Positions 11,994 to 13,061 of a stretch of DNA of 64,000 nt are shown here, in pieces; position 1 is the stretch's first letter, and each line of letters opens with the position of its first letter. This stretch comes from a virus. The stretch lies in the IMG/VR virus record IMGVR_UViG_3300027969_003844, positions 1 to 64,000 of that record; one strand, given 5' to 3'. The notes under the pieces were generated by a model, which made no database searches, was not told the origin of the DNA, and was given only the letters and a program-made list of their open reading frames with translations. Position numbers and translations under genes: made by a program.

Positions 11994-12185
11994 TTACCAA
12001 TGATGTATTACGTTAGCACAAATAAAGAAACATGTGATTACATGTATTATAACCCAAAATGTCTTTAAAGTCAAGGCAATTCTGGCTTCACATAAAGAAA
12101 GAATAGGCACGTCGGGCCTATCATTATCGGTATGGCCCATTAAATGACCAGTTGCGCGAGCCCAAACTTTTTCTAAACTATTCAT
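11994..12185 (-). CDS. small membrane protein
   Basis: ORF track; hydrophobic C-terminus. Confidence 0.7.
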   Translation of the reverse strand: MNSLEKVWARATGHLMGHTDNDRPDVPILSLCEARIALTLKTFWVIIHVITCFFICANVIHHW

Positions 12186-12199
12186 GTAGACTCATTATA

Positions 12200-12420
12200 A
12201 AAGCCACGAAGCAGGGACGAAATGAAAATAGTCAAACAGCAAATATCAAATATCTAACATCAAATATGGGCCTTTTGCTTGGGTATCACATCAAACATCA
12301 ATTTATTTTTTGATACCCAAGCAAGACAATTTTGGAGTTAGTTTTTCAGACTAAGCCAGTAGTTTTCATCGAAGTTCGATGATGTATTTCCATTCCCTAC
12401 CCTGGACCAAGTGTGGCAGC
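12200..12420 (-). ncRNA. candidate ~215-nt structured ncRNA with 7-nt repeat array
   Basis: long-range closing stems with G-U pairs on the minus strand, perfect 14-bp hairpin, 5 tandem heptamers. Confidence 0.8.
12233..12267 (-). repeat. 5 x 7-nt tandem repeat (plus strand CAAATAT consensus; RNA AUAUUUG)
   Basis: caaacag caaatat caaatat ctaacat caaatat. Confidence 0.9.
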
Positions 12421-12999
12421 TTAGTCTAGCCCGAGCTCAGTTAGCACAAGTGCTACCTGTTCAGGTACTTCAAACTCTGTACGGACATTGATGGTGACCA
12501 TCTCGTCCTTGATCTTGCGTCGACGACGACGAATTGTTTCCAGCTCAGTCTTGGCTTCTGTTACAGATTCAGCTGGCACAACGTTAACGTCAACGCTGTA
12601 ATCACGACCGTAAATGCTCATGCGTTCGTTGTTGCTGTTGGCCTTGCGGCTTTCAATTTCAGCAACCAGGGCATCCAAATTAGGACGAACTTGAGATTCG
12701 CTGTAGGCTTTCAACCGAGTCTCTGCACTAGCCAACATGGCTTCTTCTGCCAGGTAGTCGGCAATGCCAACTTCGGCATTTTTCTTTGCAACCACTGCAC
12801 GAAGAAACTTATTTGCATTCAGTAAACGACCAACATGTGCATGATTCTCACGAACCTTGACCAATTGCTCATCAAGGCGAGCCTGGATATCAGCTTCAAA
12901 CAAGCTGACTTTGAGAGTGGTATCTGCTGTGCCAAGACGCTTGATTTCGTCTGTGATTGTTTGTTGGATTACACTGGCCTTGCGTAAATTGATTTTCAT
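12421..12999 (-). CDS. DIP1984/DUF6847-like helical-hairpin protein
   Basis: L.KA..IQ start, ...KKNAEVGIADYLA, C-terminal KIKDEMVTINVRTEFEV resembling the family's N-xx-T-E ending. Confidence 0.6.
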   Translation of the reverse strand: MKINLRKASVIQQTITDEIKRLGTADTTLKVSLFEADIQARLDEQLVKVRENHAHVGRLLNANKFLRAVVAKKNAEVGIADYLAEEAMLASAETRLKAYSESQVRPNLDALVAEIESRKANSNNERMSIYGRDYSVDVNVVPAESVTEAKTELETIRRRRRKIKDEMVTINVRTEFEVPEQVALVLTELGLD

Positions 13000-13032: not shown

Positions 13033-13061
13033 AGTATAACAGTACTATTCGCCGTCGTCAA
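13033..13061 (-). promoter_or_regulatory. sigma70 promoter TTGACG-N17-TATACT for the DIP1984-like gene and RNA
   Basis: direct reading. Confidence 0.75.

Follow-up and report, generated by a model that had tools for sequence, protein, structure and literature searches.

The VIPR system of phages consists of a protein, Vipr, and a noncoding RNA, vrRNA. Vipr, a RAMP protein, has an RRM core together with a glycine-rich loop and a thumb, and the vrRNA is built from 9 to 16 YNNGG pentanucleotide repeats with a fixed GGY, or from a related 5-mer (bioRxiv 10.64898/2026.04.26.720920, 10.64898/2026.04.26.720927). Vipr protomers polymerize along these repeats, sequestering GGY and exposing the NN bases, which are hypervariable and pair with DNA by a 1-nt-skip rule (bioRxiv 10.64898/2026.04.26.720920, 10.64898/2026.04.26.720927). 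A 7-nt spacing of RNA motifs is known from HutP, which binds the hut leader of Bacillus subtilis as an oligomer, recognizing XAG triplets spaced by 7 nt in single-stranded RNA; in-line cleavage was seen at U498, U505, and U512, and three XAG motifs are accommodated per hexamer surface (PMC2425495). HutP is an alpha/beta hexamer that takes up 3 + 3 units on its two faces, and it serves as a cis antiterminator in a bacterial operon (PMC2425495).

Here we describe an array of 7-nt units within a noncoding RNA (ncRNA) of a phage. The stretch of DNA analyzed, referred to as the window, corresponds to positions 1 to 64,000 of a 105-kb phage record in IMG/VR (estimated completeness 32%, G+C 39%). Like VIPR, the locus is phage encoded and pairs one small protein gene with an adjacent ncRNA on either side, and its tandem array, in which a fixed trinucleotide recurs at strict spacing with other bases in between, is joined to a conserved structured part. 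It differs from VIPR in having a period of 7 rather than 5, five to six units rather than 9 to 16, and UUG rather than GGY as the fixed element. Moreover, the array is enclosed in a closed multihelix RNA instead of preceding a 3′ tail as in the vrRNA. In contrast with the RAMP/RRM architecture of Vipr, the neighboring 192-aa protein is predicted to be all helical, and structure searches with it returned helical bundles and no Cas5, Cas6, or Cas7. As for an alternative VIPR-type effector, no other gene is conserved beside the RNA. Neither the VIPR papers nor a survey of periodic intergenic arrays contains a UUG, heptamer, or 7-nt type with a helical protein.

With HutP, the locus shares a trinucleotide every 7 nt, and the second unit of the window array is often xAG. 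Unlike in the hut leader, the trinucleotide is UUG, the units form one run of five to six plus a pair in a hairpin loop, and the whole sits in a closed RNA domain rather than in a terminator leader. A Pfam scan of the neighboring proteins found no HutP domain.

Short repeated motifs are also present in the TRAP-binding leader, which carries 11 (G/U)AG units with 2- to 3-nt spacers, and in Csr sponges of the CsrB/RsmZ type, whose GGA motifs lie in hairpin loops at irregular spacing. These RNAs likewise display several short single-stranded motifs, each of which binds one subunit there, but neither is tied to a helical phage protein, and the array described here has a period of 7 and five units. 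A first-pass annotation of the window had suggested that each heptamer is the footprint of one protein subunit, with TRAP as an analogue. The periodic recurrence of the units in relatives (see below) fits this idea, under which each unit would be such a footprint, whereas TRAP, with a period of ~5 and 11 units, did not hold up as the model; by analogy, HutP and the vrRNA of VIPR are closer. The present system lacks defining features of VIPR, HutP, and TRAP alike, and what it may have in common with them is the mode of working.

A folded noncoding RNA next to an uncharacterized phage gene

The array lies in a spacer of 235 nt between two minus-strand features, an open reading frame (ORF) of 192 aa (12421-12999) and one of 63 aa. 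The latter is followed by the gene of a UvdE-type endonuclease; tail-fiber genes are located upstream, and tRNA genes occur in this genome only at 97.7 to 105 kb. Since a promoter-like site precedes the 192-aa gene (Table 1) and none lies between that gene and the RNA, the RNA is probably the 3′ part of the 192-aa gene transcript. The 63-aa ORF (11994-12185) is without a Shine-Dalgarno sequence, and within it lie a hairpin resembling a terminator (12122-12102) and, for the UvdE gene, a strong promoter-like site (12074-12046, 11/12 matches), so that its coding status is uncertain despite a weak PHROG match.

The spacer is kept in 26/26 IMG/VR loci that encode relatives of the 192-aa protein (60 to 96% identity). 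Its conserved part extends from the stop codon to a GUGGC motif ~225 nt further on, and the gene that follows varies among the 26 loci. RNAalifold, applied to 18 distinct copies, predicted three stacked closing helices, two short hairpins, and one long hairpin, with changes on both sides in 21 of the 46 pairs. Many G-U pairs in the closing helices are compatible with the minus strand only. When metagenome copies were added to give 40 distinct rows, 96.5% of the cells were paired and compensatory changes were present in 34/46 pairs, values that favor the structure somewhat because this alignment was fitted to the model. Slid controls were 36 to 47% paired, and none of 500 shuffles reached the observed values. 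In the two helices of the long hairpin (helices 7 and 8), 13 of 16 pairs show changes on both sides. The single-sequence fold gave a z of -4.85. The spacer is an RNA whose fold is backed by covariation. In addition, a P5-like stem-loop with a CUUGAAA-type loop is found in two loci at 32% protein identity (L066 and L097).

Table 1. Features of the ncRNA locus in the window
Feature	Position	Strand	Remarks
Putative sigma-70-like promoter	13033..13061	-	TTGACG, 17 nt, TATACT, TG extension; consensus match only; before the 192-aa gene
192-aa protein P0001, predicted all helical	12421..12999	-	Candidate RNA partner, by adjacency
Whole ncRNA, ~225 nt	12197..12423	-	Begins at the 192-aa gene's stop codon and ends just beyond the P1 3′ strand
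5′ strands of P1, P2, and P3	12385..12417	-	P1 GCCAC, within 12411-12417; P2 CAGGG, within 12397-12404; P3 12385-12395
Hairpin P4	12366..12384	-	CAUCAUCGA...UCGAUGA; compensatory variants in the alignment; unscored by RNAalifold owing to gaps
Hairpin P5	12338..12354	-	UUAGU, loop CUGAAAAA, ACUAA; RNAalifold helix 6
Long hairpin P6	12270..12327	-	14-bp core (12311-12324 with 12275-12288) plus 4-bp extension; helices 7 and 8
Mini-array	12288..12301	-	UUGAUGU UUGAUGU; two units in 7-nt register inside the loop of the long hairpin
Main array, U1 to U5	12233..12267	-	Five 7-nt units ending UUUG/UUAG; single-stranded in the consensus fold
3′ strands of P3, P2, and P1	12203..12230	-	P3 12219-12230; P2 12212-12216; P1 12203-12207; P3 adjoins the array

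No match at the gathering score of Rfam 15 was obtained in the window, where the region 12100-12500 gave only sub-threshold noise of the microRNA type, and 15 related loci yielded tRNA matches only. Comparison of the spacer DNA with GenBank phages found no similarity. As a separate observation, the sequence GACUAAG spanning the stop codon (12417-12426, minus strand) can pair with either of two CUUAGUC-type sites (12404-12410 and 12347-12353), the second of which can also pair with ACUAA (12338-12342, minus strand). In one related locus, L025, the stop codon is UGA and a matching change is seen at all three other pairing sites. Such complementarity suggests that the stop codon may take part in alternative pairings.

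Read on the minus strand, positions 12233-12267 give AUAUUUG AUGUUAG AUAUUUG AUAUUUG CUGUUUG, to the letter the five tandem heptamers reported in the first-pass annotation, and Tandem Repeats Finder lists 5.9 copies with a period of 7 at 12226-12267 (score 47). The same annotation had placed the array in an unpaired arm of the multiloop and had noted a recurrence of the unit in the loop of the 14-bp hairpin. Both descriptions hold: in the consensus fold the array remains unpaired, flanked by the long hairpin and by the 3′ strand of the closing helix, and the hairpin loop carries two further units in 7-nt register. The motif of this mini-array, TGATRTTTGAT, is unchanged across 18/18 sequences, and a UUG-N4-UUG pair, as read by eye, is likewise present in the corresponding part of the hairpin in L056, L066, and the Caulobacter phage CcrColossus. 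Scanning both strands of the 64 kb for at least four of five TTG at 7-nt spacing returned the main array as the sole run, compared to a mean of 0.05 runs in shuffles that preserve local composition.

Relatives of the close clade neither lack the repeats nor carry them at random periods: the period is 7, the number of units is five to six, and the 25 distinct gap-free arrays of the close clade are free of indels. The register is kept while individual positions vary, as had been claimed, with the caveat that unit 2 is degenerate. Pairwise differences within the close clade amount to 3.5% for the TTTG cores in units 1, 3, 4, and 5 and to 50% for unit 2, which indicates that the anchors are strongly selected and unit 2 is nearly free; elsewhere in the RNA, paired columns differ by 19% and other unpaired columns by 34%. 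Unit 2 often reads UAG instead of UUG in the window's clade, and unit 4 is weaker as well. Column information shows an autocorrelation of 0.36 at lag 14 but of ~0 at lag 7. Owing to the degenerate unit 2, conservation strength alternates and looks 14-periodic, while the register of the sequence is still strictly 7. The units of the array are not equivalent although the register of 7 is kept. Between the anchors, the window clade shows few forms only (AURU, ACNU, and CURU), and apart from unit 2 the variability of these bases does not exceed that of other unpaired columns. Elsewhere in the 105-kb genome, the 9-mer ATRTTTGAY shows no enrichment, and it is therefore not a genome-wide signal.

The neighboring 192-aa protein matches no Pfam, NCBIfam, or PHROG family, and PADLOC as well as PDB sequence searches gave nothing meaningful; DUF6847 is assigned to 19% of the members of a nearby ESM Atlas cluster, one of the nearest. 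An AlphaFold2 model (pLDDT 80) is all helical apart from two 3-residue strands. Its best and only near-full-length match among solved structures is 3kdq, an uncharacterized protein of Corynebacterium diphtheriae whose fold is the one termed DIP1984-like in the first-pass annotation (Foldseek probability 1.0, E 0.036; structural alignment with Z 10.2 over 143 of 152 residues, rmsd 4.3, 14% sequence identity). We consider this match suggestive, not decisive, as the score lies in a range common for helical bundles and 3kdq itself is without an assigned function. The protein carries a basic helix, RRRRRKIK, which is invariant in the close clade but not conserved across the wider family; this family numbers 384 cluster representatives at E ≤ 1e-3. 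A literature search on DIP1984, on ncRNAs of jumbo-phage tRNA clusters, and on ncRNAs of CcrColossus found nothing relevant.

Recurrence of the array in distant phages

Homologs of the 192-aa protein with 29 to 32% identity are encoded by two cultured, GC-rich Caulobacter phages, namely gp272 of CcrColossus and gp279 of CcrPW. In both genomes, the homologous gene is followed by an unannotated gap of 284 to 292 nt, which contains a 10-bp closing helix and, just 5′ of its 3′ strand, six units: AUUUGUG GGUUGCG CGUUGUC CGUUGUA GCUUGCC CUUUGUC. A profile search added 55 loci at ~30% protein identity, and 50 distinct distant loci were scanned for arrays. At least five of six TTG at a period of 7 were present in 13 of these 50 loci, invariably on the strand of the gene, and in none of the shuffles. 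A blind scan of the same 50 loci, covering all 64 trinucleotides at periods 4 to 11 on both strands, singled out TTG with period 7 as the only combination to reach five of six.

In distant relatives, the array takes the form (NNUUGNN)x5-6 and lies upstream or downstream of the gene. Ten of 14 listed array loci have five units ~95 nt upstream of the gene; RNAs of this upstream type have a promoter-like site of their own, a 14-bp closing helix, and the array beside the 3′ closing strand. In L066 and L055, the array is downstream. Gene and array can thus swap order yet remain together, and the linkage of gene and RNA extends across ~30% protein identity in either order. Compared across homologs, as the first-pass annotation had proposed, period and unit number persist: UUG recurs every 7 nt in relatives at ~30% identity and in the GC-rich Caulobacter phages, whether the array precedes or follows the gene. 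In 37 of the 50 distinct distant loci, a search out to 1.5 kb from the gene found no array, so that either the protein is not always beside such an RNA or the RNA lies farther off. A covariance model of the window-type RNA, R1, was strong for the close clade only, weak for L066 and L097, and did not reach the RNAs of the Caulobacter phages or those with upstream arrays. The distant RNAs are therefore considered homologous on the basis of layout and array, not of the model score.

Distant relatives share a further feature of genomic context. At ~30% identity (L056 to L110, gene at ~1501-2070 of the locus), the gene is situated inside a phage tRNA cluster, often with tRNA-Met(CAT) directly downstream or after a gap of 300 to 360 nt. 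A conserved noncoding stretch of ~340 nt separates gene and tRNA-Met in L059 (2070-2430) and likewise in L061, L067, and L072. This stretch contains no UUG array and has no Rfam match in these four loci; it may represent a further RNA that partners with this protein family. ARAGORN predicted a tRNA with anticodon CUA, labeled Pyl (L066:3088-3162) and a possible amber-suppressor tRNA, within the tRNA cluster of a 168-kb phage that is 99% complete.

The scan for the TTG-N4 pattern also brought up a second, abundant type of heptamer array, composed of four to nine GCTTGNN units in which GCTTG is fixed and NN variable (L233:1732-1900 and 2634-2700, for example; also L254, L256, L257, L286, L296, L299, L305, and other IMG/VR contigs). 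Two to four such arrays flank the gene of an ~200-aa Cys-rich GP88 protein (PF17338), always on the opposite strand, an arrangement seen in 25 of the 80 loci returned. The GP88 model (pLDDT 87) has no clear match to a solved fold and is not RAMP-like, and the VIPR papers make no mention of a GP88/GCTTGNN array. In a 285-kb relative of the window phage (L350; G004:C1:231525-231998), a GP88 domain is part of a 778-aa open frame ~8 kb from that genome's copy of the ncRNA locus. A GP88-type protein was considered as the true partner of the UUG array and rejected, because neither the genome fragment of the window nor the complete genome of CcrColossus nor that of a relative at 99% completeness contains one.

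A candidate docking track and its rivals

We propose that the heptamers form a periodic single-stranded docking track within a dedicated phage ncRNA, most likely for the adjacent 192-aa protein; reading this from sequence comparison, we see the chances of the proposal as evenly balanced. An oligomerizing protein, for which the neighboring helical protein is the most likely candidate, would hold each UUG of this exact 7-nt series in one binding pocket or protomer. Five to six protomers on the junction array and two on the hairpin loop would then assemble into a defined ribonucleoprotein on a closed RNA scaffold. Its recurrence next to this gene in very different giant phages makes it probable that the array serves as the docking track of a protein-RNA particle. 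We infer protein binding, the neighbor as the binder, and a stoichiometry of one unit per protomer from several observations: the fixed register and number of units, the unpaired state of the array, its deep recurrence, the singular result for TTG and period 7 in the blind scan, and the fact that the RNA stays with the 192-aa gene while the downstream gene varies. The basic helix RRRRRKIK also suits an RNA partner, and HutP and Vipr provide precedents for the spacing. Against the proposal stand the 37/50 distant loci without an array nearby, the 14-periodic conservation, which is not simply explained by one identical protomer per unit, the arginine run that is unconserved in the wider family, and the 3kdq match below the decisive level.

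We rank the rival explanations in the order guide RNA, decoy, role of the RNA alone, and element acting at the DNA level. The first concerns the four bases between anchors (N4), which may carry specificity since they are lineage specific. Between two lineages with upstream arrays, the anchors differ by 0% and N4 by 60%, whereas the 80-nt flank on the 5′ side differs by 6% and the remaining RNA by 15%. Within these lineages, N4 differs by just 4 to 5%, meaning that these bases are kept within a lineage and replaced between lineages. Such a pattern would fit a noncontiguous guide RNA, in which the protein sequesters the UUG anchors and shows the four bases between them as a gapped guide to DNA or RNA, that is, the vrRNA logic of VIPR executed by an unrelated helical protein. 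Five to six tetranucleotide blocks would jointly specify a target, and the block sets of different lineages would stand for different target specificities. That a code of this kind exists in phages is demonstrated by VIPR. However, the lineage switch of N4 is a single event, and the inter-anchor bases of the window clade are constrained to few forms. Gapped targets were searched for in phage sequences (own genome, CcrColossus/CcrPW, and IMG/VR). The 105-kb own genome contained no gapped complement at skips of 0 to 4 nt, and CcrColossus/CcrPW, at skips of 0 to 2 and with up to 3 mismatches, gave only one chance-level match with 3 mismatches. Exact searches of IMG/VR at skips of 0 to 3 yielded nothing but the arrays themselves at skip 3 and one chance-level match at skip 2. 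We consider it unlikely that the UUG array is the guide of a second noncontiguous RNA-guided system, unrelated to RAMP proteins.

It is similarly doubtful that the UUG units act as a decoy or sponge, titrating an RNA-binding factor of the host or of a rival phage while the neighboring protein has another role. Conceivable targets are proteins of the Hfq, cold-shock, or S1 type and nucleases recognizing loops that are U rich or anticodon-like. Several identical single-stranded units in the manner of CsrB would fit, as would the position of the distant-relative locus inside phage tRNA clusters, a region tied to tRNA conflicts. Read as sequence, the xU-UUG-AU units of the window clade even resemble a 7-nt anticodon loop, but this likeness fails in other clades (UUGCA, UUGUA). 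More generally, a sponge would have no need of an exact, indel-free 7-nt register, and it leaves the tight linkage to one protein family unexplained.

A role for the RNA alone, in which the U/G-rich track makes tertiary contacts or offers evenly spaced RNase processing sites, appears improbable. The array does adjoin an A/U-rich closing helix, RNAalifold places weak pairs inside the array of the upstream clade (one with changes on both sides), and the RNA of relatives lies among tRNAs, which are processed. Yet inspection of the window clade revealed no conserved sequence complementary to the array, and a triplex or loop contact would not predict UUG every 7 nt across differing base compositions.

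We give still less credence to an element acting at the DNA level, such as iterons or operator sites, or to a cis translational operator in those cases where the array is in the 5′ leader. Autoregulation is known for some phage single-strand-binding proteins, and the layout of ten distant loci would suit it, since the array there follows a promoter-like site and precedes the start codon of the gene. On the other hand, the array is always on the strand of the gene and belongs to a fold with many strand-specific G-U pairs, and in the window, in L055 and L066, and in the Caulobacter phages it comes after the gene, with differing genes behind it.

Finally, slippage and a micro-ORF were rejected as most improbable origins of the pattern: perfect microsatellites of similar sequence do exist in unrelated contigs ([GATGTTT]n in L111:3354-3530 and [ATTTGAT]n in L258:6728-6835), with which the conserved imperfect array is not to be confused, and an ATG-to-TGA frame of 11 codons (MFDxxxLxFAV) runs across the array in 20/25 variants, but copy number is invariant in 25 arrays whose units are imperfect while their anchors are conserved, 5 of the 25 start with ATA, two have internal stops, no Shine-Dalgarno sequence lies upstream, information per codon position is flat (1.45, 1.52, and 1.50), and no frame is shared by the distant clades.

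The array is a conserved, functional element within a previously undescribed phage ncRNA, which is tied to an uncharacterized protein family. Repeat-coded RNAs read by oligomerizing proteins have been recognized in phages only recently, through VIPR, and the locus described here presents a different repeat code, with a period of 7, a UUG anchor, a different RNA architecture, and an unrelated, uncharacterized protein family. This family has hundreds of cluster representatives in giant phages, often within tRNA clusters, and with CcrColossus and CcrPW it includes cultured members, which makes the proposed docking of the protein directly testable at the bench. Should the array be a protein track, the locus would encode a new phage ribonucleoprotein; should the inter-anchor bases carry specificity, it would represent an independent invention of gapped RNA-guided recognition.
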